From IMG/VR virus record IMGVR_UViG_2651869748_000011: 15,748 nt of DNA; one strand, 5' to 3'. The translations under genes and the position numbers were made by a program. This stretch comes from a virus (taxonomy: Duplodnaviria > Heunggongvirae > Uroviricota > Caudoviricetes). The first letter of the stretch is position 1. Every line of letters begins with the position of its first letter. The notes under the pieces are model-generated. The model was not told where the DNA came from, did not search any database, and worked only from the letters and a program-made list of their open reading frames with translations. Below are positions 1 through 15,748 of the stretch, piece by piece.

Positions 1-246
1 TCAGTATTTCCCCGATACCTTGTGTGCAAATTGCATCAGATAGTTGATAGCCTTTTGTTTGTCGTTCTGGCTGAGTTCGTGCTTACCACAGAATACAGCC
101 ATTCCGAATCCGGCTTGTGATTGCGCCATCCCCATAGCAGCCATCACATCAGTACCGGAAAGAGAGTCAGAAGCCGTAGCCCGTGGTGAGTCGCTCATCA
201 TCGGGCTTTTTGGCGAATGAAATTTAGCTACGCTTTCGAGTCTCAT
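1..246 (-). CDS. Q: Late antiterminator Q, N-terminal fragment only (81 codons, then in-frame TGA at 1-3); likely inactivated
   Basis: The translation [44 protein letters not shown]...[10 protein letters not shown] matches my memory of the lambda Q N-terminus. Lambda Q is about 207 aa. The ATGA overlap with the upstream phosphatase stop matches lambda. The stop codon sits at the window edge. Confidence 0.8.
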
Positions 247-908
247 GCGCCTTCTCCCTGTACCTGAATCAATGTGAGGTTTCCGCAGAACACTGCGCCG
301 GTATCGATATACATCTGGTTGGCAAACTTGAGTGGTTTCACTGCTGGCGTATGACCAAAGATGAACGTGTCCGCACCTTTGATTTCTTTCACGATCCCGT
401 CTTGTGAGTTGCTGATTCGTTCGCGGTTCCAGATTACCTGCTGATGATCAACTGGTTTTCCAAACTCGTATTCGTCACAAGGATAATCGGCGTGGCAGAT
501 GACATATTTTTTATCTTTGCTCACCAGTTCGATGATTAACGGAAGTTCATCTGCTTTATGGGCAAGAGCTTTAGCCAGAATTTCTTTGTCGTAATCGAGA
601 TTAAAGAACCATCCACCGCCATTAAGCAGCCAGTGATTAACGTTTCCACGCTCTGATAAGCCATCAATCATCATTTGCTCATGGTTTCCACGTACAGCTC
701 TGAACCAGGGGAATGTGATTAATTCCAGGCATTCGACGTTCTCTGCACCACGATCAACCAAATCGCCCACCGAGATAAGCAGGTCTTTTTTGTTGTCGAA
801 TCCAATCGTATCCAGTTTGTTCATCAGGTTCGTGTAGCATCCGTGCAGATCGCCAACTACCCAAATATTTCGGTATTTGCTGCCATCAATTTTTTCGTAA
901 TAGCGCAT
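243..908 (-). CDS. ninI: Ser/Thr protein phosphatase (lambda PPase, NinI)
   Basis: From the internal Met, the sequence [25 protein letters not shown]...GDLVDRG...GNHE...GHTP carries the calcineurin-like metallophosphatase motifs (GDxHG, GDxVDRG, GNHE). It is near-identical to lambda phosphatase (221 aa). The ORF-track start at 983 is an upstream extension. Confidence 0.95.
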
Positions 909-1092
909 CTCTTTCACTCCATCCGCGATGAACCATAAGAACATCGTTGACGATGGCGTGCATTTTCCCGTCTTTATCATCAACGTATTTTCTGACCGTA
1001 CCGCGACTACATTTCAGTCTGCGTGCTACTTCTGTCTGGTTTCCGTATGCTTCAACGAGCATGTCTGGAATGGTTTTTACTGAGAACGTCAT
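886..1092 (-). CDS. ninH: NinH protein
   Basis: The 68-aa translation [37 protein letters not shown]... matches lambda NinH, which has an HTH-like segment. It sits between ninG and the phosphatase, as in lambda. Confidence 0.9.
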
Positions 1093-1700
1093 GCGGCCTC
1101 ACTTCTGCTATTTCGCAGGTCTTTGAGTTTCTGTTGGTACTCTGCCTTGATCGCCTTGCACTCTTCGACAGTCCAGCGATGGCGGCTATGGTTTGATTCG
1201 ATTTCGTCTACTGCTTCCTGCCCGATGCGGTTAATCAGTTCGACGCGATACGGAACGAGATTTCCGCTTTTGTGCTGGTTGCACACCACGCATTGCTTGT
1301 GAATATTGCGTTCATCAAATCGGAGTTGAGGTGCCGCAGCAGTTGTCCGGTAATGTCCGGCATCCCACTGAGCAGACGTGAGCGTTCCGCACGAGATACA
1401 TGGTAAGTCGCGGTCTCTTTCTCTGATGAAGGCGTTTACAGCTTGTTGGGCTTGTTTAATCCAGTAACTGCGGGGCTTTAAGGCGAGTTTTCGAATCTTC
1501 AGTTTATCTTTCTGTTTCTGCTCCTCTCGTCGTCGTTTCTTCTCTGCTGCTTTTTCCGCTTTTTCGCGTTCTTTGCTTCGTCGTTCCAGTGCTATCTTTG
1601 TTCCACACTCTGGAGAGCACCACCACTGATTAGCGAATGCAGGGTGAAACCATTCCCGACATTCTTCGTTTTTACATCGTCTTCGCGCTTGTTTAGCCAT
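1089..1700 (-). CDS. ninG: NinG / Rap recombination endonuclease
   Basis: The 203-aa translation [33 protein letters not shown]...[11 protein letters not shown]... is near-identical to lambda NinG (Rap). Its start overlaps the upstream stop (TAATG). Confidence 0.95.
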
Positions 1701-1969
1701 TATGGTTCGCTCCAGTAATTCTCAATTGCAGCAGCCATTCTCTGCATCCACTCTGCCAGCTTTAACGCGGCTTCTCTTTCAGAACCACATTTAGGGAAAT
1801 CCTTCATTTCCATGCTGGCCTTATATGTTCTGAATGCCAGGTCTCCGGTAATAACCAGCTCCTGATCAAGCACCGAGCGTTTATTCCGGTGTTGAACGTA
1901 ATAGACAGATTCAGTCCGCATTTCTTCTCTGTCTTTTTTGAAGGAAATAAGCTCAGAGAAATCACTCAT
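1700..1969 (-). CDS. Hypothetical nin-region protein (89 aa), not present in lambda
   Basis: This is an intact ORF. It is translationally coupled on both sides: its ATG overlaps the ninF stop, and its stop overlaps the ninG ATG. I recognise no family. Confidence 0.6.
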
Positions 1970-2138
1970 CGTCTTCTTCCTCGTACATTGAGCTATTCGG
2001 ATCGCTCATCAGTTCTGCGCAGCAGTGCTCACACACATGAACTTCCAGCACATGCAGCTTCTGACCGCAGTTAGCGCACGTTAAAGCCCGCTCGACGCTT
2101 TCTTTCTGGTATTGAAGAGATTGGGATGGGCTAAGCAT
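1962..2138 (-). CDS. ninF: NinF-like small zinc-ribbon protein (58 aa); below the ORF-track size cut-off
   Basis: Manual translation of the minus strand gives [58 protein letters not shown]. From ESVERALTCANCGQKLHVLEVHVCEHCCAELMSDPNSSM onward it matches lambda NinF, with CxxC...CxxC. Its start overlaps the upstream stop. Confidence 0.8.
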   Translation of the reverse strand: MLSPSQSLQYQKESVERALTCANCGQKLHVLEVHVCEHCCAELMSDPNSSMYEEEDDE

Positions 2139-2490
2139 TATTGGCGTCCTGCATCATGAGAAAGACAATCATGGCGGCGCGGAGGGAATTTTCATGTATA
2201 GCTAGCTTAGATTTACAGTCGGCCACACCACGTGCACCCCACTCGTCTTCATCGAGATTGATGATGCTAATCCTGTACTTCTCAATAATCGGCCATGAGG
2301 CGCTAGGATCATTGCAGTAGTCAGGCAAAGGGTTTAATGGCTCAAAAGTTGTATCAGCATTTCCGTAATACCATTTGTTGGTGTTATTCCCTGATGTTTC
2401 CGGTTTACATGCCCAAAGGCCTTTAAAAATTATGTCTCCTACCATTCTGTTAATTTCAAAATCACTTAACTGTGAATAATCCATTGTCAT
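2131..2490 (-). CDS. NinX-like phage protein (DUF2591-type), nin-region accessory gene
   Basis: The translation [18 protein letters not shown]...[29 protein letters not shown] resembles NinX/DUF2591 proteins of P22-like and lambdoid phages, from memory. The ATG at 2490 forms an ATGA overlap with the ninE stop. An alternative ATG lies at 2484. Confidence 0.6.
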
Positions 2491-2663
2491 TTCCTCGCAC
2501 GATGTCTTAGCCACCGGATATCCCACAGGTGAGCCGTGTAATTGAAGGTTTTTACGTCAGATTCTTTTGGGATTGGCTTGCGTTTATTTCTGGAGCGTTT
2601 CGTTGGAAGGTATTTGCAGTTTTCGCAGATGATGTCGGTGATACTTCGTCGCTGTCGTCTCAT
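2487..2663 (-). CDS. ninE: NinE protein
   Basis: The internal start gives [58 protein letters not shown] (58 aa), matching lambda NinE. It has an ATGA overlap with the methyltransferase stop. Confidence 0.85.
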
Positions 2664-3187
2664 GCCGCCCTCCTGACGCCCTGCCCGATCGCCATCAATG
2701 CCGCTTTGGATACGGTAGTAAACATCCGTCGAGGACTGATGAACGGTCGCCAAATCAGCAGCATGGAACCTTTGCTGTTTCCCTTCTTCTCCAGCCCTGT
2801 CGATGGTTCGATAAAATTAATCCGTCCATCAGTGATAATACGAACTTCGTCAACACTCTCCAGAGCCTTGCTGAACCATCCGACAGACATATCCTCTGGC
2901 ACAAGCATCACTACCGTCTGTCGCTGTTGTATGCACTGCTCAGCGGCTTTTTCCACCCACGGCCTGATATTGCTGTACGGTGGGTTATTCCAGATTGCAC
3001 CGTGGCTTACCCACTCAGAATTGAGCGCGTCGTCGGCCTCAGTTAACCAGTGAGCGCACAGAGCATTTTTGTCGCTCGCTGCCGAATCCAGCCAGAATCC
3101 AAACTCAATATCCAGTGCATCAAAAAGCCAAAGCGGCGTTTGCCAGCAGTCCTTGTCGTGTGCTGGCGTATTTGATTTGATAGTCAT
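2660..3187 (-). CDS. Phage DNA N6-adenine methyltransferase (Dam-like, phage N-6-MTase family)
   Basis: The translation [37 protein letters not shown]...NPPY contains the DPPY/NPPY catalytic motif and the CWQTP motif typical of the phage Dam family. It has an ATGA overlap with the ninB stop and occupies the lambda ninC/D position. Confidence 0.85.
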
Positions 3188-3624
3188 GCAGCCCGATCTC
3201 CCCATCTCGCTTTCCACTCCAGAGCCAGTCTCGCTTCGTCTGACCACTTAACGCCACGCTCTGTACCGAATGCCTGTATAAGCTCTAATAGCTCCGCAAA
3301 TTCGCCTACACGCATCCTGCTGGTTGACTGGCCTATTACCACAAAGCCATTCCCGGCAAGGTTAGGAACAACATCCTGCTGCTTTAATGCTGCGGTAAAC
3401 ACACACTTCCAGCTTTCTGCATCCAGCCAGCGACCATGCCATTCAACCTGACGAGAGACGTCACCTAAGCAGGCCCATAGCTTCCTATTTTGGTCTAAGC
3501 TGCGGTTGCGTTCCTGAATGGTTACTACGATTGGTTTGGTTGGGTCTGGAAGGATTTGCTGTACTGCGTGAATAGCGTTTTGCTGATGTGCTGGAGATCG
3601 AATTTCAAAGGTTAGTTTTTTCAT
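3184..3624 (-). CDS. ninB: NinB (Orf) recombination mediator
   Basis: From the internal Met, MKKLTFEIRSPAHQQNAIHAVQQILPDPTKPIVVTIQERNRSLDQNRKLWA... (146 aa) matches lambda NinB. Confidence 0.95.
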   Translation of the reverse strand: MKKLTFEIRSPAHQQNAIHAVQQILPDPTKPIVVTIQERNRSLDQNRKLWACLGDVSRQVEWHGRWLDAESWKCVFTAALKQQDVVPNLAGNGFVVIGQSTSRMRVGEFAELLELIQAFGTERGVKWSDEARLALEWKARWGDRAA

Positions 3625-3640
3625 GACTTCCCTCTCCCCC

Positions 3641-3672
3641 AAATAAAAAGGCCTGCGATTACCAGCAGGCCT
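3641..3672 (-). terminator. Intrinsic terminator tR2 between ren and ninB
   Basis: The minus strand reads AGGCCTGCtggtaatcGCAGGCCT followed by TTTTTATTT, an 8-bp GC-rich stem plus a U-tract. It has the same sequence and position as lambda tR2. Confidence 0.8.
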
Positions 3673-3697
3673 GTTATTAGCTCAGTAATGTAGATGG

Positions 3698-3988
3698 TCA
3701 TCTTTTAACTCCATATACCGCCAATACCCGTTTCATCGCGGCACTCTGGCGACACTCCTTAAAAATCAGGTTCGTGCTCATCTTTCCTTCCCGTTCTTCC
3801 CTGGTAGCAAACCGGTAATACACCGTTCGCCAGACCTTACCTTCGATAACCAGAAGACCTGCCCGTGCCATTTTAGCCGCGGCCTGATTTATGCTGGTTA
3901 CTGTTGCGCCTGTTAGCGCGGCAACGTCCGGCGCACAGAAGCTATTATGCGTCCCCAGGTAATGAATAATTGCCTCTTTGCCCGTCAT
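3698..3988 (-). CDS. ren: Ren protein (Rex exclusion escape)
   Basis: The 96-aa translation MTGKEAIIHYLGTHNSFCAPDVAALTGATVTSINQAAAKMARAGLLVIEGK... matches lambda Ren. It has an ATGA overlap with the P stop. Confidence 0.95.
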   Translation of the reverse strand: MTGKEAIIHYLGTHNSFCAPDVAALTGATVTSINQAAAKMARAGLLVIEGKVWRTVYYRFATREEREGKMSTNLIFKECRQSAAMKRVLAVYGVKR

Positions 3989-4686
3989 ACACTTGCTCCT
4001 TTCAGTCCGAACTTAGCTTTAATTTCTGCGATCTTCGCCAGAGCCTGTGCACGATTTAGAGGTCTACCGCCCATAACAGGAAGTTGTTTTACTGGTTCAG
4101 GTATCGTCTCACCACGGTTAATTCGCGCTGTCATACAGGTCAGTTCATCGGCAGCCTTGCGCCGTAATTCCGCATCAGTAAGCGCATTGGCCCGCATGTT
4201 CTGATACAGGTTGGTAACCAGCCAGTAGTGCGCGTTTGATTTCCACGGATAAGACTCCGCATCCGGATACAGGCCTCGCTTCCGGCAATACTCGTAAACC
4301 ATATCAACCAGCTCGCTGACGTTTGGCAGTCCGGCGATAACGGATGCTTCTTCCCGGCACCATGCAACAAACTGCCCGGGTGATGGCAGAAATGGTCGAT
4401 TCTGCCGACGGGCTACGCGCATTCCTGCGTTAACCTGTTCCATCGTGGTGATCCCGTTTTCCCGAAAAGCCAGAACCCACTGGCGACGGATTTCGTTCAC
4501 TTCGTTCTGGTCACGGTTAGCCAGGCTCGCCGGGAAAGTTGCCAGTAACTGGCTGAACACACCGTTGATGATCTGCGCTACCTGCTGTACCTGCGGCTTT
4601 TCGTCGTACTGTTCCGGCATGTTGTTGGCGATCCGACGCATCTGCTCACGGTCAAAGTTAACCATCTGTGCGGCGATGTTTTTCAT
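3985..4686 (-). CDS. P: Replication protein P (DnaB helicase loader)
   Basis: The 233-aa translation MKNIAAQMVNFDREQMRRIANNMPEQYDEKPQVQQVAQIINGVF... matches lambda P. Confidence 0.97.
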   Translation of the reverse strand: MKNIAAQMVNFDREQMRRIANNMPEQYDEKPQVQQVAQIINGVFSQLLATFPASLANRDQNEVNEIRRQWVLAFRENGITTMEQVNAGMRVARRQNRPFLPSPGQFVAWCREEASVIAGLPNVSELVDMVYEYCRKRGLYPDAESYPWKSNAHYWLVTNLYQNMRANALTDAELRRKAADELTCMTARINRGETIPEPVKQLPVMGGRPLNRAQALAKIAEIKAKFGLKGASV

Positions 4687-5582
4687 AGATCCACCCCGTA
4701 AATCCAGTCTGTGTTTGTCAGGTCGAGTTTTGGTTTGCTGGCTGTCACGACTGCCTGTTGCTTGTTACGGTTGATTTCGAGCTGGGTCCACTTGTCGCGG
4801 AGTTTGGCCGGACTAAGCACGTTACCGGACCAGAAGTTGTCCTGGCATGCCCAGCGGAACAGCACGCACATGTCGCGGTGGTTACGTCCGTCACGTTCAC
4901 GCATCAGGCGGATATCGTTAGCCCACCCTGCAAAATTCGGTTTTCTGGCTGATGGCGCGATGGTCTTCACCATGTCAAACATCCACTCTGCGGCGGTCAG
5001 GTCTTCTGCTGTCCCCCACTTGCTGCCGCTCTGAATTGCAGCATCCGGTTTCACCACAGAAAGATCGTTTTCTGGCTGGTCAGAGGATTCGCCAGAATTC
5101 TCTGACGAATAATCTTTTCTTTTTTCTTTTGTAATAGTGTCTTTTGTGTCCCTCTGTTTTGAGGGATAGCAATCCCCCAATTTGAGGGATGTTTTATCCC
5201 TCGTTTTAGGGGATTTTCCCTCGTTTTGAGGGATACACCATTCTGAGATGTTTTTATTTGGTCCAAACATGCCGCCTTGCTGCTTGATAATATTCATTCT
5301 GACGAGTTCTAACTTGGCTTCATTGCACCGTTTGACGGGTAACTTTGTAATCTCGCTAAGTTGAGAATCGGTGACTCTGTCCATTGGTTTATTCCACCCA
5401 TAGGTTTTACGCAGAATGGCAAGCAGCACTTTAAACTGTCGCTTGGTCAGATCTGCGCCCGAATAAGCCTCAAGCAGCATATTTGATAGTCTGGCGTAAC
5501 CATCATCGAGATCTGCCACATTACGCTCCTGTCCGGCAAAGTTACCTCTGCCGAAGTTGAGTATTTTTGCTGTATTTGTCAT
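4683..5582 (-). CDS. O: Replication initiator O
   Basis: The 299-aa translation MTNTAKILNFGRGNFAGQERNVADLDDGYARLSNMLLEAYSGADLTKRQFKVLLAILRKTYGWNKPMDR... matches lambda O. The gene contains the ori iterons. Confidence 0.97.
   Translation of the reverse strand: MTNTAKILNFGRGNFAGQERNVADLDDGYARLSNMLLEAYSGADLTKRQFKVLLAILRKTYGWNKPMDRVTDSQLSEITKLPVKRCNEAKLELVRMNIIKQQGGMFGPNKNISEWCIPQNEGKSPKTRDKTSLKLGDCYPSKQRDTKDTITKEKRKDYSSENSGESSDQPENDLSVVKPDAAIQSGSKWGTAEDLTAAEWMFDMVKTIAPSARKPNFAGWANDIRLMRERDGRNHRDMCVLFRWACQDNFWSGNVLSPAKLRDKWTQLEINRNKQQAVVTASKPKLDLTNTDWIYGVDL
5105..5234. repeat. Lambda-type replication origin inside O: four O-binding iterons (5149-5233) plus an adjacent AT-rich unwinding region (5105-5147)
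   Basis: Four internally palindromic repeats of about 18 bp are present: tccctctgttttgaggga, atcccccaatttgagggat, atccctcgttttaggggat and tccctcgttttgaggga. They are flanked by aataatcttttcttttttcttttgtaatagtgtctttt. Confidence 0.9.
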
Positions 5583-5592
5583 AATGACTCCT

Positions 5593-5669
5593 GTTGATAG
5601 ATCCAGTAATGACCTCAGAACTCCATCTGGATTTGTTCAGAACGCTCGGTTGCCGCCGGGCGTTTTTTA
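5593..5669 (+). ncRNA. oop: oop antisense RNA (overlaps the 3' end of cII)
   Basis: The sequence GTTGATAGATCCAGTAATGACCTCAGAACTCCATCTGGATTTGTTCAGAACGCTCGGTTGCCGCCGGGCGTTTTTTA matches the 77-nt lambda oop RNA with its terminator hairpin. The upstream Po elements are TTGCTG..CATAAT. Confidence 0.85.
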
Positions 5670-5908
5670 TTGGTGAGAATCGCAGCAACTTGTCGCGCCA
5701 ATCGAGCCATGTCGTCGTCAACGACCCCCCATTCAAGAACAGCAAGCAGCATTGAGAACTTTGGAATCCAGTCCCTCTTCCACCTGCTGATCTGCGACTT
5801 ATCAACGCCCACAGCTTCCGCTGTCTTCTCAGTTCCAAGCATTGCGATTTTGTTAAGCAACGCACTCTCGATTCGTAGAGCCTCGTTGCGTTTGTTTGCA
5901 CGAACCAT
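5615..5908 (-). CDS. cII: Transcriptional activator cII
   Basis: From the internal Met, MVRANKRNEALRIESALLNKIAMLGTEKTAEAVGVDKSQISRWKRDWIPKFSMLLAVLEWGVVDDDMARLARQVAAILTNKKRPAATERSEQIQMEF (97 aa) matches lambda cII. The ORF-track start at 5968 is an extension. Confidence 0.97.
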   Translation of the reverse strand: MVRANKRNEALRIESALLNKIAMLGTEKTAEAVGVDKSQISRWKRDWIPKFSMLLAVLEWGVVDDDMARLARQVAAILTNKKRPAATERSEQIQMEF

Positions 5909-5918
5909 ATGTAAGTAT
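5886..5918 (+). promoter_or_regulatory. PRE promoter with cII-binding TTGC-N6-TTGC repeat
   Basis: The sequence ttgcgtttgtttgc at 5886-5899 is followed by a -10-like aagtat. The arrangement and location over the cII start match lambda PRE. Confidence 0.7.
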
Positions 5919-5987
5919 TTCCTTAGATAACAATTGATTGAATGTATGCAAATAAATGCATACACCATAGGTGTGGTTTAATTTGAT

Positions 5988-6019
5988 GCCCTTTTTCAGG
6001 GCTGGGATGTGTAAGAGCG
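5988..6019 (-). promoter_or_regulatory. nutR (boxA CGCTCTTA plus boxB hairpin); the tR1 region follows downstream
   Basis: The minus strand reads CGCTCTTACACATCCCAGCCCTGAAAAAGGGC. boxB is GCCCTGAAAAAGGGC at 5988-6002 and boxA is at 6012-6019. The site lies between cro and cII as in lambda. Confidence 0.85.
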
Positions 6020-6027
6020 GGAATATC

Positions 6028-7383
<1,356 letters not shown>

Positions 7384-7433
7384 TCCCCACCTCAATCTCG
7401 ATAACCAAAAAACAAACTATTTTCCGTTTAAAA

Positions 7434-7507
7434 ACAATGGAGTTTGTTTTTCATGCCCCTTTTTTACAATATTTCTTGTTTACAACATACAATCTTTCTT
7501 GTAATTT
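7434..7507 (+). promoter_or_regulatory. 434 left operator (three ACAA-N6-TTGT sites at 7434-7447, 7466-7479 and 7489-7502) and the PL promoter
   Basis: The sites are acaatggagtttgt, acaatatttcttgt and acaatctttcttgt. A sigma70 promoter overlaps them: TTTACA (7479-7484), a 17-nt spacer, then TAATTT (7502-7507), reading towards N. Confidence 0.8.
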
Positions 7508-7547
7508 TAAGCCATCAGCAGGACGCACTGACCACCATTGAAGGTGA

Positions 7548-7578
7548 TGCTCTTAAAAATTAAGCCCTGAAGAAGGGC
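7548..7578 (+). promoter_or_regulatory. nutL (boxA-like TGCTCTTAA plus boxB GCCCTGAAGAAGGGC)
   Basis: The sequence tgctcttaaaaattaaGCCCTGAAGAAGGGC is as in lambda nutL, with one mismatch in boxA. It lies between PL and N. Confidence 0.85.
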
Positions 7579-7736
7579 AGCATTCAAAGCAGAAGGCTTT
7601 GGGGTGTGTGATACGAAACGAAGCATTGGCCGGAAGTGCGAATCCGGATTAGCTGCAAATGAGCCAATCGTGGGGTGTTTTCGTTCAGGACTACGACTCA
7701 CACACACCACCAAAGCTAACTGACAAGAGAATCCAG

Positions 7737-8060
7737 ATGGATGCACAAACACGCCGCCGCGAACGTCGCGCAGAGAAACAGGCTCAATGGAAAGTAGCAA
7801 ATCCCCTGTTGGTTGGGGTAAGCGCAAAACCAGTTAACCGCCCTATTCTCTCGCTGAATCGCAAACCGAAATCACGAGTAGAAAGCGCACTGAATCCGAT
7901 AGACCTTACAGTGCTGGCTGAATACCACGAACAGATTGAAAGCAACCTGCAACGTATTGAGCGCAAGAATCAGCGCACATGGTACAGCAAGCCTGGCGAA
8001 CGCGGCATAACATGCAGTGGACGCCAGAAAATTAAGGGAAAATCGATTCCTCTTACCTAG
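7737..8060 (+). CDS. N: Antitermination protein N
   Basis: From the internal Met, MDAQTRRRERRAEKQAQWKVANPLLVGVSAKPVNRPILSLNRKPKSRVESALNPIDLTVLAEYHEQIESNLQRIERKNQRTWYSKPGERGITCSGRQKIKGKSIPLT (107 aa) has the arginine-rich motif. It is about 97% identical to lambda N, from memory. Confidence 0.95.
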   Translation: MDAQTRRRERRAEKQAQWKVANPLLVGVSAKPVNRPILSLNRKPKSRVESALNPIDLTVLAEYHEQIESNLQRIERKNQRTWYSKPGERGITCSGRQKIKGKSIPLT

Positions 8061-8615
8061 TTACTTAGATATTGGCCTTGGCTTTATCTCAATATTATAT
8101 GGATCATAGCTGGCAACTAATTCAGTCCAGTAAATATCCTCAATAGGGAATAATATATGCTTCCCGTTCCATCGGGAAAAAGTTTTGTTCAACACACCAA
8201 GCTCAATCAACTCACTAATGTATGGGAATTGTTTTGATGTAACCACATACTTCCTGCCTTCATTAAGGGCTGCGCACAAAACCATAGATTGCTCTTCTGT
8301 AAGGTTTTGAATTACCGATCGCACTTTATCGTTTTGCATCTTAATGCGTTTTCTTAGCTTAAATCGCTTATATTTGGCGCTGGCAATAGCTGATAATCGA
8401 TGCACATTAATTGCTAGCGAAAATGCAAGAGCAAAGACGAAAACATGCCACACATGAGGAATACCGATTCTCTCATTAACATATTCAGGCCAGTTATCTG
8501 GGCTTAAAAGCAGAAGTCCAACCCAGATAACGATCATATACATGGTTCTCTCCAGAGGTTCATTACTGAACACTCGTCCGAGAATAACGAGTGGATCCAT
8601 TTCTATACTCATCAA
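8061..8615 (-). CDS. sieB: Superinfection exclusion protein B (SieB), membrane protein
   Basis: The 184-aa ORF runs antisense to the PL operon between N and ral, as lambda sieB does. It has two hydrophobic helices (MYMIVIWVGLLLLS, VWHVFVFALAFSLAINV). The sequence matches my memory of lambda SieB. The true start may be the second Met (8612). Confidence 0.75.
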   Translation of the reverse strand: MMSIEMDPLVILGRVFSNEPLERTMYMIVIWVGLLLLSPDNWPEYVNERIGIPHVWHVFVFALAFSLAINVHRLSAIASAKYKRFKLRKRIKMQNDKVRSVIQNLTEEQSMVLCAALNEGRKYVVTSKQFPYISELIELGVLNKTFSRWNGKHILFPIEDIYWTELVASYDPYNIEIKPRPISK

Positions 8616-8739
8616 ACTGTAGGGGTTGTAATAGTTTATCCGATTTCTCGCTGTAGGGGTACACGAGAACCACCGAGCCTGATGTGGTTAAAAGACAGGC
8701 ACAATCTTTACTACCGCAATCCACTATTTAAGGTGATAT

Positions 8740-8826
8740 ATGGAAGAAGAATTTGAAGAGTTCGAAGAGCATCCGCAGGATGTAATGGAACAGTACCAGG
8801 ACTATCCGTATGACTACGACTATTGA
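8740..8826 (+). CDS. Small acidic protein (28 aa), lambda orf28-like
   Basis: Manual translation gives MEEEFEEFEEHPQDVMEQYQDYPYDYDY*, preceded by AAGGTGA. It overlaps the ral start. It is too short for the ORF track. Confidence 0.5.
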   Translation: MEEEFEEFEEHPQDVMEQYQDYPYDYDY

Positions 8827-8989
8827 TAAGAATCAATGGTGTGGACAATTCAAGCGATGCAATGGATGCAAGCTGCAATCGGAATGCATGGTTAAGCCTG
8901 AAGAAATGTTTCCTGTAATAGAAGATGGGAAATATGTCGATAAATGGGCAATACGAACGACGGCAATGATTGCCAGAGAACTTGGTTAA
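8810..8989 (+). CDS. ral: Ral (restriction alleviation), shortened by a premature TAA (59 aa versus 66 aa)
   Basis: Manual translation gives MTTTIDKNQWCGQFKRCNGCKLQSECMVKPEEMFPVIEDGKYVDKWAIRTTAMIARELG*. After the TAA the same frame continues QNNKAA*, which is the lambda Ral C-terminus. Confidence 0.8.
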   Translation: MTTTIDKNQWCGQFKRCNGCKLQSECMVKPEEMFPVIEDGKYVDKWAIRTTAMIARELG

Positions 8990-9109
8990 CAGAACAACAA
9001 AGCTGCCTGATAGTGGCCTTTATTTTTGGCATAAATAACAGAATAAACACTGCACTGAACCGCCCCGGGAATCCTGGAGACTAAACTCCCTGAGAAAGAG
9101 GTAAACAGG

Positions 9110-9436
9110 ATGACTAAAAATACTCGTTTTTCCCCTGAAGTCCGTCAACGGGCAGCCCGTATGGTTCTGGAAAGTCAGGGCGAATATGACTCACAATGGG
9201 CGACAATTTGTTCCATTGCTCCAAAGATTGGCTGTACGCCGGAGACTCTGCGTGTCTGGGTTCGCCAGCATGAGCGGGATACCGGGGGCGGTGATGGAGG
9301 GCTCACCACCGCTGAACGTCAGCGTCTGAAAGAGCTGGAGCGTGAAAATCGTGAACTGCGCCGCAGTAACGATATCCTTCGCCAGGCTTCCGCTTATTTT
9401 GCGAAGGCGGAGTTCGACCGCCTCTGGAAAAAATAA
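9110..9436 (+). CDS. IS629-like transposase OrfA (HTH, leucine-zipper region)
   Basis: The 108-aa translation is [57 protein letters not shown]...[34 protein letters not shown]. It ends in TGG AAA AAA TAA; the A6 run is the candidate -1 frameshift site. Confidence 0.95.
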
Positions 9437-10323
9437 TGCCGCTGCTGGATAAGCTGCGTGAGCAGTACGGGGTCGGACCGCTATGCAGCGAACTGCATAT
9501 TGCCCCGTCAACGTATTACCACTGTCAGCAACAGCGACATCATCCGGATAAACGCAGTGCCCGTGCGCAGCGCGATGACTGGCTGAAGAAAGAGATACAG
9601 CGCGTATACGATGAAAATCACAAGGTATACGGTGTGCGTAAAGTCTGGCGTCAGTTGTTACGGGAAGGAATCAGAGTGGCCAGATGCACTGTGGCACGTC
9701 TCATGGCGGTTATGGGACTTGCCGGTGTTCTCCGGGGTAAAAAGGTCCGCACTACCGTCAGCCGGAAAGCCGTTGCCGCATGCGACCGCGTAAACCGTCA
9801 GTTCGTGGCAGAACGTCCAGACCAGTTGTGGGTGGCTGATTTTACCTGGGTAAGCACATGGCAGGGCTTCGTTTATGTGGCGTTCATCATTGATGTGTTC
9901 GCCGGATACATCGTGGGATGGCAGGTCTCATCATCCATGGAAACAACATTCGTGCTGGATGCACTGGAGCAGGCGTTGTGGGCCCGTCGGCCGTCCGGCA
10001 CAATCCATCACAGTGATAAAGGTTCTCAGTATGTATCGCTGGCCTACACGCAGCGGCTTAAGGAAGCCGGATTACTGGCATCAACAGGGAGTACTGGCGA
10101 CTCGTATGACAACGCGATGGCGGAGAGCATCAATGGTCTTTACAAAGCGGAGGTAATACACCGTAAGAGCTGGAAAAACCGTGCAGAAGTGGAACTGGCC
10201 ACACTCACGTGGGTGGACTGGTATAACAATCGACGATTGCTGGAAAGGCTGGGCCATACTCCCCCGGCAGAAGCAGAAAAAGCTTATTATGCTTCCATCG
10301 GAAACGATGATCTGGCAGCCTGA
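9436..10323 (+). CDS. IS629-like transposase OrfB (DDE / rve catalytic domain)
   Basis: The 295-aa ORF is in the -1 frame relative to orfA (TAATG overlap). DDE-type motifs are present: WVADFTWV, HHSDKGSQY and DNAMAESINGLYK. Confidence 0.95.
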   Translation: MPLLDKLREQYGVGPLCSELHIAPSTYYHCQQQRHHPDKRSARAQRDDWLKKEIQRVYDENHKVYGVRKVWRQLLREGIRVARCTVARLMAVMGLAGVLRGKKVRTTVSRKAVAACDRVNRQFVAERPDQLWVADFTWVSTWQGFVYVAFIIDVFAGYIVGWQVSSSMETTFVLDALEQALWARRPSGTIHHSDKGSQYVSLAYTQRLKEAGLLASTGSTGDSYDNAMAESINGLYKAEVIHRKSWKNRAEVELATLTWVDWYNNRRLLERLGHTPPAEAEKAYYASIGNDDLAA

Positions 10324-10365
10324 GTTCACAGATAAAACACTCTCCAGGAAACCCGGGGCGGTTCA

Positions 10366-10554
10366 CTGCGTGTGTGGGTTCGTCAGCATGAGCGGGATAC
10401 CGGGAGTGGTGATGGTGGACTCACCACCGCTGAACGTCAGCGTCTGAAAGAGCTGGAACGTGAAAATCGTGAACTGCGCCGCAGTAACGATATCCTTCGC
10501 CAGGCTTCCGCTTATTTTGCGAAGGCGGAGTTCGACCGCCTCTGGAAAAAATAA
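10366..10554 (+). pseudogene. Truncated orfA remnant of the second IS629-like copy
   Basis: The in-frame remnant [62 protein letters not shown] corresponds to residues 47-108 of OrfA. The native start, RBS and HTH are absent. Confidence 0.8.
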
Positions 10555-11441
10555 TGCCGCTGCTGGATAAGCTGCGTGAGCAGTACGGGGTCGGACCGGT
10601 ATGCAGTGAACTGCATATTGCCCCGTCAACGTATTACCACTGTCAGCAACAGCGACATCATCCTGATAAACGCAGTGCCCGTGCTCAGCGCGATGACTGG
10701 CTGAAGAGAGAGATACAGCGCGTATACGATGAAAATCACAAGGTATACGGTGTGCGTAAAGTCTGGCGCCAGTTGTTACGCGAAGGTATCAGGGTGGCCA
10801 GATGTACAGTGGCGCGCCTCATGGCGGTTATGGGACTTGCCGGTGTTCTCCGGGGTAAAAAGGTCCGTACTACCGTCAGCCGGAAAGCCGTTTCCGCAGG
10901 CGACCGCGTAAACCGTCAGTTCGTGGCAGAACGTCCTGACCAGCTGTGGGTGGCTGATTTTACTTACGTCAGCACATGGCAGGGCTTCGTCTATGTGGCG
11001 TTCATCATTGATGTGTTTGCCGGATGTATCGTGGGGTGGCGAGTCTCATCGTCTATGGAAACGACATTCGTGCTGGATGCACTGGAGCAGGCGTTGTGGG
11101 CCCGTCGGCCGTCCGGCACAGTCCATCACAGTGATAAAGGTTCTCAGTATGTATCACTGGCCTATACGGAGCGACTAAAAGAAGCAAAACTGCTGGCATC
11201 AACAGGGAGTACAGGTGACTCGTATGACAACGCGATGGCGGAGAGCATCAATGGTCTTTACAAAGCGGAGGTAATACACCGTAAGAGCTGGAAAAACCGT
11301 GCAGAAGTGGAACTGGCCACACTCACGTGGGTGGACTGGTATAACAATCGACGATTGCTGGGAAGGCTGGGTCATATCCCTCCGGCAGAAGCAGAAAAAG
11401 CTTATTATGCTTCCATCAGAAACGATGATCTGGCAGCCTGA
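10554..11441 (+). CDS. IS629-like transposase OrfB (second copy, intact ORF)
   Basis: The 295-aa ORF is about 96% identical to 9436-10323 and keeps the DDE motifs. It probably cannot be made as an OrfAB fusion because orfA is truncated. Confidence 0.85.
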   Translation: MPLLDKLREQYGVGPVCSELHIAPSTYYHCQQQRHHPDKRSARAQRDDWLKREIQRVYDENHKVYGVRKVWRQLLREGIRVARCTVARLMAVMGLAGVLRGKKVRTTVSRKAVSAGDRVNRQFVAERPDQLWVADFTYVSTWQGFVYVAFIIDVFAGCIVGWRVSSSMETTFVLDALEQALWARRPSGTVHHSDKGSQYVSLAYTERLKEAKLLASTGSTGDSYDNAMAESINGLYKAEVIHRKSWKNRAEVELATLTWVDWYNNRRLLGRLGHIPPAEAEKAYYASIRNDDLAA

Positions 11442-11713
11442 GTTCACAGATAAAACACTCTCCAGGAAAACCGGGGCGGTTCAAATAACATTGTGCGTAC
11501 TCCTCTTGAGAAGGTGAGAACTATCGGTATCGCAGACACAGTTATGCCTACGGGTCTCCCCGCATCGGTCATTCTCAAAAGGTTTAAAATAGGGTTAGGT
11601 TTGATCACTCTGAACGATCAATCGAAGACATTACGATTGGAACAAACGATCAATAGGTATGTGGTTATTTGCTAAGCTGCGACAACCTTTACAAAGACAC
11701 TCAGGAATGTTTC

Positions 11714-12022
11714 ATGCCCAAATTAGCTATTAGCTTATTACTTTACTTGGCCTGCTTTTATGCAGTTGGATATGGCGCTGGATATATAACAGGTGGAATA
11801 ACTTGGCACACACTGTATATGCTTGAACGTATAATTACCGTAGCCCTACTTGCATTCATTCCAGTGTTTATCTTTGCGGCTTTATTAAATGCATCCAAAA
11901 GACAAGGAATAATAAAATCACTTTCTGTCTCAGCGATTAATTTAATCCCTTCGGCTATCGCATTACTTATAGGATTTACTGACGCAGTGACCAGAAAGTT
12001 TCTTACTTATTTTCTCGGTTAA
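11714..12022 (+). CDS. Small integral membrane protein (102 aa, about 3-4 TM helices), unknown function
   Basis: The translation is MPKLAISLLLYLACFYAVGYGAGYITGGITWHTLYMLERIITVALLAFIPVFIFAALLNASKRQGIIKSLSVSAINLIPSAIALLIGF... The RBS AGGAA lies 7 nt upstream. The gene is AT-rich relative to its neighbours. It is convergent with the minus-strand operon and overlaps it by 20 nt. Confidence 0.6.
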   Translation: MPKLAISLLLYLACFYAVGYGAGYITGGITWHTLYMLERIITVALLAFIPVFIFAALLNASKRQGIIKSLSVSAINLIPSAIALLIGFTDAVTRKFLTYFLG

Positions 12023-12194
12023 CTGACATATTGCGAATGACCAACTGTTCTATTAGCTCATTACGAGAATAAAATGGTCGGTCATTCGTAGCCGCTTTAT
12101 CCACGCCAAGCATCGACAATAGAATAGAAGTGGGAAGCCCCCGGTAACGCAGGGTCAAACGGCCTTCGGGAGTGCGTGGGTCAATCATAGCCAT
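12003..12194 (-). CDS. Hypothetical small protein (63 aa) downstream of the KilA-N gene
   Basis: The translation is MAMIDPRTPEGRLTLRYRGLPTSILLSMLGVDKAATNDRPFYSRNELIEQLVIRNMSVNRENK. GGAG lies 9 nt upstream of the ATG at 12194. The ORF-track start at 12209 is a GTG inside the KilA-N gene. The helix-extended-helix-like segment is only a guess. Confidence 0.45.
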   Translation of the reverse strand: MAMIDPRTPEGRLTLRYRGLPTSILLSMLGVDKAATNDRPFYSRNELIEQLVIRNMSVNRENK

Positions 12195-12196
12195 TG

Positions 12197-12682
12197 TTAA
12201 AGTCTCCACTCACAGCGACCGACACGTAGCTCCTCAAACTCCTCTTTCGAGACGAGTTGTCCAGCCCTGTAGTGCGATACCGTGTGCTTCTTAATGAATG
12301 CCTTAGAGTCCGGCGTGATGTCGTCCGAAGATGCTACAGCGGCCTGTACGCTGGCACTGGAGGTCATAGACACAAAGGCATCCGCTACAGCTATTCCGTA
12401 CTCAAAGTCCAGCCACTCGCCAAACTTGACGGCGGACGTGGGGTCAGCAAGCCATGACGTACCGAGGCGACCCATATCAACTTTCTTTATGCGGCGGTTT
12501 TTCTGCCCCATAAGATAGCGCCCGACTTTGGTCTGAGCGAAACGCTTAACCATTGTCTTCTCGGTGTCTTCTACCTTACCAATCTGAATACCGACCCGGC
12601 GAATTTCATCCAATCGGAACAATCCGTCTTGACTGGTGAGGTCCTGACCGAAGATATGGATAGTGTATTCTTGTTGAGACAT
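12197..12682 (-). CDS. KilA-N domain-containing protein (161 aa)
   Basis: The RBS is AAGGAG, 9 nt upstream. The segment ...RLGTSWLADPTSAVKFGEWLDFEYGIAV... matches the conserved GTW(v/l)hp..a..fa.WlsPef core of the KilA-N (PF04383-like) DNA-binding domain, from memory. Confidence 0.65.
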   Translation of the reverse strand: MSQQEYTIHIFGQDLTSQDGLFRLDEIRRVGIQIGKVEDTEKTMVKRFAQTKVGRYLMGQKNRRIKKVDMGRLGTSWLADPTSAVKFGEWLDFEYGIAVADAFVSMTSSASVQAAVASSDDITPDSKAFIKKHTVSHYRAGQLVSKEEFEELRVGRCEWRL

Positions 12683-12905
12683 ATCGTTGTACTCCTTTTA
12701 TCTGCATCCTGAAGCCGCATCCTGCCGCCTACTCAAAGCCCCCAACGATAGGGAGACGGCAGGCAACAAGACGCAGATAGAATGACTTTGAGATTTGATG
12801 ATTAGTGTCGGCGGTGGCACTTATTTAAAACGAAAGGACAACAGCATATTTCCGCATGACTTGACGCATCAAGGCCAGAGGCAGAAATAAGTATTTGCTC
12901 GGTGT

Positions 12906-12928
12906 CGTTCCTAAGGTGATAGTTTAGT
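12906..12928 (-). promoter_or_regulatory. Second, degenerate T7-family phage-RNAP promoter-like sequence (predicted +1 G at 12911)
   Basis: The minus strand reads ACTAAACTATCACCTTAGGAACG. Positions -17..-5 are identical to the element at 13470-13458. The sequence differs from it at -4, -3, +3, +5 and +6. It lies between the 60-aa ORF stop and the KilA-N leader. Confidence 0.4.
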
Positions 12929-13110
12929 CAAACAGTAATGAACTTCGGAGAACTTGACTCGAAAGTGTTCAGGACTTCCAGTGAGACCCGAAGTATGGAG
13001 ATCATATTATAGCGACCATAGTTTACTTCGGACTGACAGGACTGGAGGCTGGACTTAAAGTTCTTCTTATTGGAATTGTGATAACACAATCCATAACAAG
13101 ATAAACTCAT
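12928..13110 (-). CDS. Hypothetical small protein (60 aa)
   Basis: The ATG at 13110 is preceded by TGAGGAGACC. The translation is MSLSCYGLCYHNSNKKNFKSSLQSCQSEVNYGRYNMISILRVSLEVLNTFESSSPKFITV. The stop TGA overlaps the -17 end of the second promoter-like element. I recognise no family, so coding status is uncertain. Confidence 0.35.
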   Translation of the reverse strand: MSLSCYGLCYHNSNKKNFKSSLQSCQSEVNYGRYNMISILRVSLEVLNTFESSSPKFITV

Positions 13111-13447
13111 GGTCTCCTCAAGCCTGCTGGTCAAGACTCAAAGCTCCAACCTCAGACACCACCACTGGTCTAACCTCTTTGAGTTTCCGCCTGTCCACAA
13201 ATGGATGGCAGACCTCAGCAATGATGTCTTGGTTCTTCAGTTATCCGCGCAGCGATTATCACAGAGCCAACTTAAAGTCGGATGTGGTCTTCTGCTCCCC
13301 GCCTGTCAAAAGGGAAGATAACCTACGTTAAAAGAGAATGGTCTCAGGCCAAGGTGATTTAACACTAGGCGTCTGCGGATGGTTTCCAATCGGTCCGCTA
13401 CCGGAAGCCTGAGACTATATGAATGTGTGGGTCGGTGACTTAGGGCC

Positions 13448-13470
13448 TCTCCCTATAGTGATAGTTTAGT
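13448..13470 (-). promoter_or_regulatory. T7-family single-subunit RNAP promoter-like sequence, K1F-type specificity block (predicted +1 G at 13453)
   Basis: The minus strand reads ACTAAACTATCACTATAGGGAGA. Positions -8..+6 (TCACTATAGGGAGA) are identical to the T7 consensus TAATACGACTCACTATAGGGAGA. Positions -12..-8 (ACTAT) match the K1F-type promoter, as I recall it. The element is intergenic, 18 nt after the DUF4145 stop. Confidence 0.65.
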
Positions 13471-13488
13471 CCCCCTTCCCCGTCAGCC

Positions 13489-14148
13489 CTACTCGTTAGC
13501 GGCCTGTTGCTGTTCCCTCGCTTTCCGGTCCCGGTCTTCAATGCCCTTAAGCGCCCGTTCCGGCATACTGTTAAACATGGCTTCGACTTCTTTCGGTCGA
13601 GTAATCTGCTCAGTGACAATAATGTTCAGCAGCTTAAAGAGACCATGCGCCAACTGAGGGTCGTCATCAATGTTAATTTCACCCGGATGTACCGCCTGAT
13701 TGCCAACAATACGACAGATGTCAGCAGCTCGCTGGACCAGTGGAGACAGCCCTTTAGCTACAAGGGACTTAATGTCCGTGTCGATATGCTTCCCCGGCTC
13801 ACCGAGATGGACCATCAGCTTTTGAAGACTTAAGCGCAGGAGTGCGGCAGCGCCCTTAGGTGACAGATTAATGATGCTTCTGGCTTCCATGTAGTCGGAC
13901 TTACAGTCTTCTGGCATGTCAGGATTAGGCAGCTCAACACTACCAGCCGCAGGAATCATCATATTGCCTTTATACCAATAAGCATTTTCATAGCAATGTT
14001 GACAATATGATAAGTGGAAATCAGTTTCCATATAAGTAGAATGAGGCGCAACTCCCACCATTGACCGCCAGCTTTGCTTGGAATAAACACCACAGTGCGG
14101 GCAATTAAAAGCTTTACCATCAAACACCGCCGGATAATACTCAGCCAT
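13489..14148 (-). CDS. Zinc-ribbon plus DUF4145 domain protein (219 aa), candidate phage-defence/abortive-infection cargo
   Basis: The N-terminus has CPHCG...CQHC (a zinc ribbon). The C-terminal segment [18 protein letters not shown]...[31 protein letters not shown] fits the DUF4145 signature (L..I..L...g.l....lR..GN.aaH), from memory. The start ATG overlaps the integrase stop (ATGGCTGA). Confidence 0.7.
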
Positions 14149-15748
14149 TTACTCCAGTCTCCTTATAAACATCAGCCATCACATTAACCAATCTATCTAC
14201 CTCGACTTCTTTCGCATACCTGTCATAGGTAATCGACCCTGAGCTATGACCCATAATCGCCTGAGCATACGCTAACCCGACCCCATGTTGTTTTAACTGG
14301 GTCGCCACTGTATGTCTGAATGAGTGGAACGCTAAGCCGCTACGGTCAGCGAGGACTTTAGGTAGCAACGTTCTGTTAAACCATTTGCTCACCTGCTCAC
14401 CGTAGCCGTTCTTCATCAGCTTGAGGCCATCGAATACCATAGCATTATCACCCTTAGCCTTTCTACGGTCTTCCACGAGTGACATAAAGTCAGCCAATAA
14501 AAAACCATAAGCACCATCTACCAACGGGACACAGCGGTCACTATGGGCGTTCTTGATGCTCTTACCCGGTAGGCTGCTATCGTCTTCGTTGATATGGATA
14601 TACACGGTCCCGGCCTCAGTGGTCCTGACGTCTTTGACCTGAAGCTGAGCCACCTCATTAAGTCTTGCTCCAGTGATTGCCGCCAGAGCAGTGACGTAAT
14701 AGTGGTAGGGCTTACCTGAGGTCTTCTGAGAGTACGCTTTAGCGGCGACCAGTAGTTGCCCTACCTGCTCAGGACTGAACGCATCACGAGCGTCGGAGGC
14801 TTTACGCTGCGGGACTTTCAGCTCAAGACCTTCGGTCAGGTTCTTAGCTATCAAGTCGTTGCGTACCGCCCACTTAAACACAGCAGCCATCTTGATAAGA
14901 TATTTATTGTTGATGGTAACGACATCCAAACAGTCAGTCTTAGACTCCCGGTTCAGCAGGTCAGACAGCGGCATAGACTTAAAGCGTTGCTTGCGGTTCT
15001 TCGGTATCTGCTGGAGGACTTCACGGACCCTGAGCATATCTGAACGGGTCGCCTTGCTGACATCCTGAATATCCAGATAGTCGAATATCTCGATTAACGT
15101 AGAGTGAGACGCTCGGTTCTCGCTTAGGGTCGCTGGCTTCCAGTTCTGAGCGTTCTCCTGCTCGTACTGCTCAATGAGAGACGCGAGGGTCAGTGCTTTA
15201 GGCTCGGGGACTTCAGGCTCTGCCAATACAGATAGGGAGACGGACGGTCTTAGACTGCCAGTCTCAGGCTCAAGGTAAGACAACAGGCCAGAGGTATCGC
15301 CTTTGAGTCTATCCTGACACGCTTTAAGCACACCGATAACGTCATTGATATAGCGATGCTGGTCTACAGTCAGATGCTCAGTCGCTACAGCTTCCCGAAG
15401 GTTGGACTTGATGTCATCGTACTGGTCAACGTAGAGCTGGTAGGACTCAGGGTCGTTCAGGTCATCGCGGCTGACACTAAGTTCCCACTCGACAATGGTC
15501 TTCAGGTGTTCCCGTAGCTCCTCATAAGAGGCGTTAGGGTTGTCTGCGTGGATTGCTTTAAGTGCTGACTTGATGTGCCGTGAGTGAGCCATAGCGGTAC
15601 GTCTATCCTTGGTCCGTAAAGATACTGACGCTAGTTTATAACGGTTGTGAGAAGGAAGCGAAGCGGTCAGGCGACTAGTGGTCTTCATCCTAAGACGGAT
15701 GTAAAAGACACCGTTACGCTGATAAAGGTAGGTTCTTGAATTGAGCAT
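14141..15748 (-). CDS. Tyrosine recombinase / integrase with a long N-terminal extension (535 aa); the ATG is at the window edge
   Basis: The C-terminal catalytic motifs are present: [13 protein letters not shown] (Arg I), [13 protein letters not shown] (H-x-x-R) and [15 protein letters not shown] (His, Tyr nucleophile). The start codon occupies the last three bases of the window, so the true N-terminus could lie further upstream. Confidence 0.9.

Follow-up and report, generated by a model that had tools for sequence, protein, structure and literature searches.

K1F-type phage RNA polymerase promoters in an enterobacterial tRNA-Gly element, a probable satellite-like hitcher of T7-family phages

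Introduction

The closest described relatives of the locus considered here are the enterobacterial prophage-like islands of Chen and Schneider (Nucleic Acids Res 2006; 34:1133), a "tandem T7-like promoter" class reported from enteropathogens, whose members are said to measure 4-13 kb and to carry an integrase. Members of this class reportedly have two or three T7-like promoters within 150-620 bases and no RNA polymerase (RNAP) gene, and their promoters are said to face two to five downstream genes of unknown, phage-related function. The present analysis concerns a tRNA-Gly island found in a DNA stretch of 15,748 nt (IMG/VR virus record IMGVR_UViG_2651869748_000011, Caudoviricetes; hereafter the window), in which a K1F-type phage promoter, P1, had been noticed on the minus strand. 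Compared with this class, the spacing fits, since P1 and a second promoter, P2, lie 542 nt apart and related islands add partners 25-36 nt away. The size of 6.1-6.4 kb, the tyrosine integrase, and the lack of an RNAP fit as well, and so do the downstream genes, which are open reading frame (ORF) 161 or a Rha-type gene, ORF63, ORF163, and ORF329. The element class is thus already known since 2006, and the original prediction, which was aware of no such description for enterobacterial islands, needs amending in this respect. In the literature searched, the 2006 work is cited by five papers, each time in passing, with no experimental follow-up, and beyond that class the same literature contains no description of satellites of T7-like phages or of T7-type promoters beside the defence gene RAZR.

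The promoters of this island appear to be kept for a K1F-like RNAP, and the mobile element that bears them is probably a satellite-like hitcher of virulent T7-family phages, induced by promoter mimicry. The observations on which this reading is built are the identity of the promoters, their conservation, the host-matched switching of their specificity block, the boundaries of the element, the covariation of an RNA, and the identity of RAZR.

Phage-type promoters in a bacterial element

Two promoters are present in the window:

13448-13470, minus strand: P1, Kayfunavirus (K1F-type) phage RNAP promoter (23/23 identity to phi10 of K1F and EcoDS1; conservation)
12906-12928, minus strand: P2, second K1F-type promoter (20-nt identity to the K1F promoter at 10865)

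P1 reads ACTAAACTATCACTATAGGGAGA from 13470 to 13448 on the minus strand, with its predicted transcription start at the G at 13453. It begins 18 nt past the stop codon of a DUF4145 gene (13489-13491) and points in the same direction as the downstream genes. Its last 14 nt, TCACTATAGGGAGA, occur once in the window, where the analytic expectation for an exact match is ~1e-4; with up to two mismatches allowed, 1 match is found against 0.10 expected. As promoter reference, actual sites were used rather than a remembered consensus, namely the 11 annotated promoters of EcoDS1 and the equivalent sites obtained by scanning K1F, which gave 9-11 promoters per genome. The whole P1 23-mer (-17 to +6) equals the native phi10 promoter of both phages at 23/23 positions (K1F DQ111067, 20997-21019; EcoDS1 EU734172, 20819-20841, annotated "promoter"). 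In both genomes, phi10 precedes major capsid gene 10, and such a match is expected by chance ~4e-10 times in the window. The -12 to -8 block of P1 is ACTAT, which is also the block of the native K1F and EcoDS1 promoters (10 of the 11 annotated in EcoDS1, the remaining one having GCTAT). The -17 to -13 stretch, ACTAA, differs from the engineered PK1F promoter, yet P1 is of native Kayfunavirus type because the identity to phi10 covers all 23 positions. Exact matches to the 19-mer AACTATCACTATAGGGAGA were found in 21 IMG/VR stretches; 20 belong to T7-like contigs of ~39-41 kb, and the last one, L009, represents a further copy of the island.

The surroundings of P1 are of a different kind. A tblastn search with K1F gp1 detected a phage RNAP gene neither in the window nor in any of 46 related loci; its positive control, EcoDS1, gave 99%. 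The region with P1 has no match in phage records. The 23-mer that serves as phi10 in Kayfunavirus is here part of a mobile element of bacteria, its neighbours are not phage genes, and the sequence downstream is unrelated to the gene 10 leader. P1 would work like a phage promoter but belongs to no phage genome. The original prediction had claimed the rarity of the 14-nt core, the K1F-type block, the position and direction of P1, and a window free of single-subunit RNAP; all of these are borne out, and the K1F-type assignment is better founded than was claimed.

P2, absent from that prediction, was located by a Hamming scan at 12928 to 12906 as ACTAAACTATCACCTTAGGAACG, with a predicted start at the G at 12911 (minus strand). 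Over 20 nt it is identical to the K1F promoter at 10865, which lies immediately upstream of gene 4 (primase/helicase), and the CACCTTAGG variant of P2 is an annotated EcoDS1 promoter too, at 11107. An extra promoter, P0, is found in 5/7 aligned E. coli islands 25-31 nt upstream of P1, where it overlaps the DUF4145 stop; its specificity block, AAACCCACACTATAGGGG or AAACCCTCACTATAGGGG, differs from that of P1, and it has been lost from the window copy. Across the elements, promoters are spaced either as close pairs (25-36 nt) or at 446-562 nt, in which case they flank a non-coding stretch on both sides.

A third promoter near attR was considered as a general feature and rejected, as it was seen in two loci only. 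These sites are weaker and promoter-like (...CACCTTAGGCTGG), lie downstream of ORF329, and face attR (L118 6079; L135, minus strand, 435). Their specificity block differs between the two loci, and after circularisation they would read into the integrase gene.

Conservation and switching of the specificity block

Conservation of the motif in homologous islands had been set beforehand as a test by which the proposal could fail, and none of the related elements examined has lost the promoters. All 6 diverged E. coli islands fetched (81-91% DNA identity) carry P1 and P2, and so do copies from Enterobacter, Buttiauxella, and Shimwellia and ~20 metagenomic copies. In 47 element-bearing loci (461 kb), 92 CACTATAGG cores were counted against ~3.5 expected. 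Among the 50 K1F-type sites, positions -10 to +2 do not vary at all, and differences are confined to -17, -14, -13 (1 site), -12, -11 (2 sites), and +3 to +6; the commonly variable positions are those that vary among the native K1F and EcoDS1 promoters.

P2 keeps its position from element to element, and in E. coli-type elements that position may carry a T3-like ACCCTC promoter, alone or together with the K1F type. K1F-, T3-, and ACCCAC-types occur in E. coli and Enterobacter, and the K11-type and the exact T7 consensus occur in Klebsiella. In the type strain Klebsiella pneumoniae ATCC 13883, a promoter cluster follows the RAZR homologue, with AATTAGGGCACACTATAGGGGGA, TAATACGACTCACTATAGGGAGA, and AATTAGGGCACACTATAGGGAGA placed in this order directly after the DUF4145 gene. 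The middle one is the exact T7 class III consensus and lies between two K11-type promoters, the three together taking up ~120 nt, and a fourth variant, AATTAGGTAGCACTATAGGGAGA, follows ~440 nt further on (L034 7630-8206). Exact copies of the AATTAGGGCACACTATAGGGAGA 23-mer, in many cases several to a genome, are present in T7-like contigs of ~40-41 kb. The Buttiauxella and Shimwellia copies carry ACCCACACTATAGG at both promoter positions, an 18-mer of which two T7-like genomes have 6-9 copies each. T7-like ACAACT and CGACT blocks are found in Edaphovirga and in an Enterobacteriaceae isolate.

Repeated replacement of the block, with position and orientation kept, is what would be expected from selection for locally circulating phage polymerases. 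Because the specificity block changes with the host, it argues strongly for promoter function and is the strongest argument available; a relic would be hard to reconcile with such host-matched switching. P1 is accordingly best regarded, from sequence comparison, as a genuine, selectively maintained promoter that a K1F-like (Kayfunavirus) single-subunit RNAP would transcribe. The infection-triggered switch first envisaged for it is likewise strongly favoured by the comparative data, through both conservation and block switching.

A separate observation concerns an 11.9 kb IMG/VR contig resembling the lambdoid part of the window (L043, oriented), which carries the ACCCAC-type site TACAAACCCACACTATAGGGAGC at 6763. 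This viral contig was rejected as a copy of the tRNA-Gly element, and T7-family promoter-like sites may also occur in temperate phage DNA.

Boundaries of the element and the window copy

The following features delimit the island in the window:

14141-15748, minus strand: tyrosine integrase, 535 amino acids (Pfam Phage_integrase 8e-19, PHROG integrase 3e-44)
9248-11483, plus strand: two tandem IS3-family copies (self-blast; Pfam rve/HTH_21)

From 11481 to 15748 the window shows 100% identity to E. coli chromosomes that carry this DNA beside tRNA-Gly (glyU), at a site with actS/xdhA on one side and the ETT2 cluster on the other. In the E. coli chromosome L001 the integrase adjoins tRNA-Gly, and tRNA-Gly/attL would lie just past the window end. 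Complete elements measure 6.1-6.4 kb (~6.3 kb) between 17-bp direct repeats, TCCCTTCGCCCGCTCCA, one of which is the 3' end of tRNA-Gly and the other 6.1-6.4 kb away. Because these repeats bound complete copies at tRNA-Gly, the island is a discrete integrative element. Intact copies are found, for example, in E. coli O103 RM8385 and in FDN-11. Its parts follow in the order integrase, cargo slot, promoters, ~520-nt structured RNA, promoters, and an operon ending in a capsid-like protein. Near-identical copies are found in several genera, without conjugation genes, and one variant has an unrelated integrase at another chromosomal site.

The copy in the window is incomplete. The window matches L001 from 11481 onward only, and the IS3 copies (9248-10365 and 10366-11483) stand head-to-tail, 94.7% identical to each other. 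ORF163 and ORF329, which are present in complete elements, have no tblastn match in the window because the IS3 copies cut the element short. From this truncated copy, only the RNA, ORF161, and ORF63 could be expressed. Left of ~9,050 the window is an unrelated lambdoid prophage early region, whose genes (metallophosphatase, NinG, Dam methylase, replication P and O, CI-like S24 repressor, and SieB; positions 1-9050) bear no relation to the glyU/ETT2 context of the 100%-identical strain L001. In this strain, the IS3 copies appear to form the junction by which the lambdoid region became attached to the truncated island.

The layout recurs in L146, a distant GC-rich relative, which has an integrase, small ORFs, a weak KilA-N protein, and a protein resembling ORF329 that bears Big_2. 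It lacks T7-type cores and has a repeated intergenic motif, ACGCAAAAACCCTCACT and AAAAACCCCCACTC, at 2422-2470 and 3581-3650, which could represent promoters for another phage polymerase.

A structured RNA between the promoters

The interval between the two promoters is occupied by a single predicted feature:

12929-13453, minus strand: P1 transcript, a ~525-nt conserved non-coding structured RNA or long structured leader (covariation)

The 525 nt from the P1 start to P2 are present in 163/5,426 complete E. coli genomes and annotated in none of them, and they are absent from phage records. The transcript has no Rfam family at E<=1, and no conserved ORF was found in the interval. The "60-aa ORF" previously placed downstream of P1 is not conserved, and the immediate product of P1 is predicted to be a large structured RNA instead. 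An RNAalifold consensus for a 13-sequence alignment from five genera contains 61 pairs, 26 of them with compensatory changes. Paired cells amount to 91.5%, against 24-47% when partners are slid by 1-3 columns, and covarying pairs number 27 against 5-9 in the slid controls; 0/500 shuffles match the observed pairing and covariation values, which are to be read with a structure derived from the same alignment and ~4-5 independent lineages. The window copy has a minimum free energy of -171.2 kcal/mol (z = -2.85). The many conserved G.U pairs indicate that the fold is that of the RNA, on the P1-sense strand.

No intrinsic terminator was found between P1 and the operon, so that P1 probably reads on into the P2 operon. 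The RNA may be free only if it is processed; otherwise it would be a long structured leader. Some elements swap the RNA for a different segment of ~300 nt and retain the flanking promoters, and the inter-promoter segment thus seems to be an exchangeable module. Such ~300-nt segments were observed between K1F-type promoters in L117 (2436-2745) and L040 (6621-6930), the ~520-nt RNA being missing or additional.

RAZR in the cargo slot

The gene upstream of P1 is the following:

13489-14148, minus strand: RAZR/PD-T7-4 (DUF4145 HEPN RNase with an N-terminal Cys4 zinc ribbon), 219 amino acids (PADLOC, Pfam DUF4145)

The DUF4145 label given earlier is confirmed by Pfam; what had been overlooked is that the gene is the anti-T7 defence gene RAZR/PD-T7-4, which it matches full-length in PADLOC (E=1.7e-99, residues 1-209 of 211). 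PD-T7-4 has been renamed RAZR and described as a zinc-finger/HEPN RNase acting by abortive infection, activated by assembly around the portal rings of T3 and T7 (PMC13017515). The translation from the window contains C16/C19/C49/C52 (CxxC...CxxC), R146, and H154, matching the residues reported in that study. It has been noted that PD-T7-4 often overlaps an integrase gene (Vassallo et al.), and promoters downstream of it are mentioned neither in Vassallo et al. nor in PMC13017515.

RAZR lies upstream of P1, which does not drive it. The slot is empty in some other copies, and in others it contains an unrelated 202-amino-acid gene without a known domain. Because the content of the slot varies among copies, RAZR is cargo and the promoter module is the conserved core. 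The 202-amino-acid protein (L042 7307-7915; also L120, L121, L125, L135, L140, and L145) has no Pfam or PADLOC match and is, by its position, a candidate undescribed anti-phage gene.

The operon downstream of P2

The remaining features of the window copy lie downstream of P2:

12683-12911, minus strand: P2 operon leader, 229 nt (last ~140 nt conserved; AAGGAG ribosome-binding site)
12197-12682, minus strand: ORF161, first gene after P2 (hypothetical; a Rha/Ant-type regulator takes its place in many elements)
12003-12194, minus strand: ORF63, small conserved protein (adjoins ORF161/Rha in all elements; annotated hypothetical)
11714-12022, plus strand: ORF102, hydrophobic protein (tblastn 91% identity; annotated in L001)

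Conservation of the final ~140 nt of the leader extends as far as Klebsiella, and a strong AAGGAG precedes the start codon. By blastn, the leader block 683-825 (query) is 75-85% conserved in L031, L033, L034, L036, and L038. Upstream of the ORF161/Rha start (window 12683-12825; L034 8600-8723), a hairpin with apparent compensatory changes was observed, GCCTGCCG...CGGCAGG in E. coli and GCCTGCTGG...TCAGCAGG in Klebsiella, which is possibly a processing or translational control site.

In complete elements, ORF161 or Rha, ORF63, ORF163, and ORF329 follow the promoters on the same strand. The KilA-N label attached to the 161-amino-acid ORF could not be reproduced and was dropped, as neither a Pfam KilA-N (PF04383) match nor a KilA-N-like fold was obtained for it. 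ORF102 converges on ORF63 and overlaps its 3' end; read-through by phage RNAP from P1 or P2 would run antisense to it, and a toxin/antitoxin-like or switch arrangement is possible. ORF163 has a weak holin-like PHROG match (E=0.002).

The family of ORF329, the last gene of complete elements, comprises 64 cluster representatives. In two of its remote members the C-terminus consists of Ig-like domains (Big_2 and He_PIG), a type of domain typical of phage structural proteins. The structure model of ORF329 is of low confidence (pLDDT 45), and Foldseek against viral models returned nothing at E<=0.001; an equally poor ORF161 model, taken as an internal control, gave noise only. Searches of PDB sequences with ORF161, ORF329, and the ORF329 family profile returned nothing significant. 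A capsid-like (HK97-fold) nature of ORF329 is moderately supported.

Proposed mechanism and alternative explanations

Within minutes, T7-family phages silence the host polymerase and break down the DNA of the host. The way in which an element of the chromosome might respond to such phages has been an open problem, to which promoter mimicry would be a simple answer. Having no polymerase of its own, the element would keep its internal module silent until an infecting T7-family phage supplies the RNAP, and this dependence would provide at once infection sensing and expression after the host polymerase has been shut off. Such dependence of the core module on an infecting phage polymerase seems to be the best-supported part of the mechanism. 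From its start at 13453, P1 would transcribe the ~520-nt structured RNA and probably continue into the P2 operon. From 12911, P2 would drive ORF161 or Rha, ORF63, ORF163, and, in complete elements, the putative HK97-fold capsid-like protein. The element would thereby interfere with or redirect capsid assembly, and would carry anti-phage cargo, here RAZR, in its variable slot. Transcription by the phage RNAP, the capsid-like fold with its low-confidence model, and the satellite life cycle are the inferred parts of this scheme.

A satellite-like reading leads because a ~6.3 kb integrase element occurs in near-identical copies across genera and has no conjugation genes, and because it combines a defence cargo slot, as in P4-like satellites and PICMI, with a capsid-type gene, as in SaPIbov5 and cf-PICIs. 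In its fullest form, which is advanced tentatively and with less than even confidence, the elements would be true satellites of virulent T7-family phages. They would have copied the promoters of their helpers, so as to be expressed after host shutoff, and would build or redirect capsids by means of an HK97-like protein of their own. The ~520-nt RNA would be a new class, acting as replication primer, packaging aid, or anti-phage RNA, and the swapping of blocks would be the trace of an arms race against phages of different genera.

Several results weigh against a satellite nature. Beside the limits of the RNA covariation and of the ORF329 model given above, no replication initiator or primase, excision-directionality, or packaging gene was recognised among the element proteins with Pfam and PHROGs. 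The T7 class II pause/concatemer-junction signal (ATCTGTT) is absent inside the elements, and blastn with word size 7 and protein profiles revealed no similarity to K1F or EcoDS1 other than the promoters (origin, terminal repeat, and packaging region). No circular, circularly permuted, or concatemeric forms were found. Contigs of ~6.2-6.8 kb are whole elements in the integrated order, broken at the att repeats, and L122 begins inside the integrase gene but runs into host flank. The only IMG/VR contigs with the element, L009 (72.9 kb) and L120 (29.3 kb), far exceed its length and bear no sign of packaging. In addition, RAZR kills cells infected by T7-like phages, which is awkward for helper dependence unless the helper escapes RAZR.

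The main rival, which we consider doubtful, is that the element serves defence only. The promoters would then sense infection and fire a suicide or interference module, and the element would not be transferred by phages. The effectors could be a capsid-like decoy poisoning head assembly, the Rha/Ant-type regulator, membrane proteins, or the abundant RNA. The switch logic would be identical, the cargo slot holds a proven anti-T7 abortive-infection gene, and ORF102 and ORF163 look membrane-associated. The lack of replication and packaging functions and of packaged or circular forms also speaks for it. The mobility and capsid-type gene named above are what place satellite-like hitching ahead.

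A clearly less probable explanation is that the promoter clusters are mainly mimics of T7-type replication origins, through which the phage replisome would amplify the element and the transcript would act as primer or R-loop former. A T7 origin consists of a phage promoter and AT-rich DNA. The tandem arrangement of the promoters, as at the T7 primary origin, agrees with this idea, as do the lack of a replication gene in the element and the Klebsiella copy, where markedly AT-rich DNA follows the three promoters in ~120 nt. In the E. coli copies, however, the DNA after P1 is not strongly AT-rich, the covariation, in which G.U pairs are numerous, suggests that selection acts on the fold of an RNA and not on DNA, and some elements exchange the RNA segment yet retain the promoters. 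An origin role could possibly coexist with either the satellite or the defence reading.

Finally, a relic or chance match, in which the site would be either a fragment of phage DNA that stayed behind after recombination or a "sink" for polymerase, in neither case with an expressed function, accords with the IS3 truncation of the window copy and with a resemblance to phage DNA limited to the promoters, but it is highly improbable given the rarity of a 23/23 match, the conservation of the site while its flanks diverge, the switching of blocks to match host-specific phages, the two promoter positions maintained in dozens of copies, and, for a sink, the inability of 2-4 promoters per chromosome to titrate polymerase against a replicating phage with ~10 promoters per genome.

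If promoter mimicry is confirmed, no earlier satellite or inducible defence element is known that is coupled so directly to a phage RNA polymerase, RAZR would be placed in a natural mobile context, and a new large structured RNA would be added to those known. It would also be relevant where T7-like phages are used therapeutically against E. coli and Klebsiella, since the type strain K. pneumoniae ATCC 13883 has a copy with exact T7 and K11-type promoters. The islands form a natural library of orthogonal phage promoters.

Comparison with known systems

Of the features expected of a satellite, the element has an integrase, att sites, a discrete extent, and a distribution over several genera, and no replication initiator or primase of its own was recognised in it with Pfam and PHROGs. 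PICMI of Vibrionaceae, which are satellites of virulent phages, are likewise ~6 kb integrase islands with few genes and defence gene cargo (PMC10803314). They differ in AlpA activation, in having a primase and no capsid-type gene, and in that their packaging as concatemers has been shown (PMC10803314); the present element would be induced through its promoters for a phage RNAP, none of its genes was recognised as one for replication, and its packaging is hypothetical. With the Ccm protein of SaPIbov5 and the head proteins of cf-PICIs, which are capsid homologues encoded by satellites, the capsid-type gene shares no sequence similarity. Those islands depend on temperate siphoviruses as helpers, and components of the portal, protease, and terminase, absent here, are also encoded by cf-PICIs. 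P4-like satellites share with the element an integrase beside a variable anti-phage cargo slot; the alpha primase, sid, psu, and delta of P4-like satellites are missing, and the putative helper would be a virulent T7-family phage and not P2.

With respect to the class of islands known since 2006, several traits appear to be new, namely the link to RAZR/PD-T7-4, the covarying ~520-nt RNA, the capsid-like ORF329, the variable cargo slot, and the pairing of promoters of two specificities at both positions.
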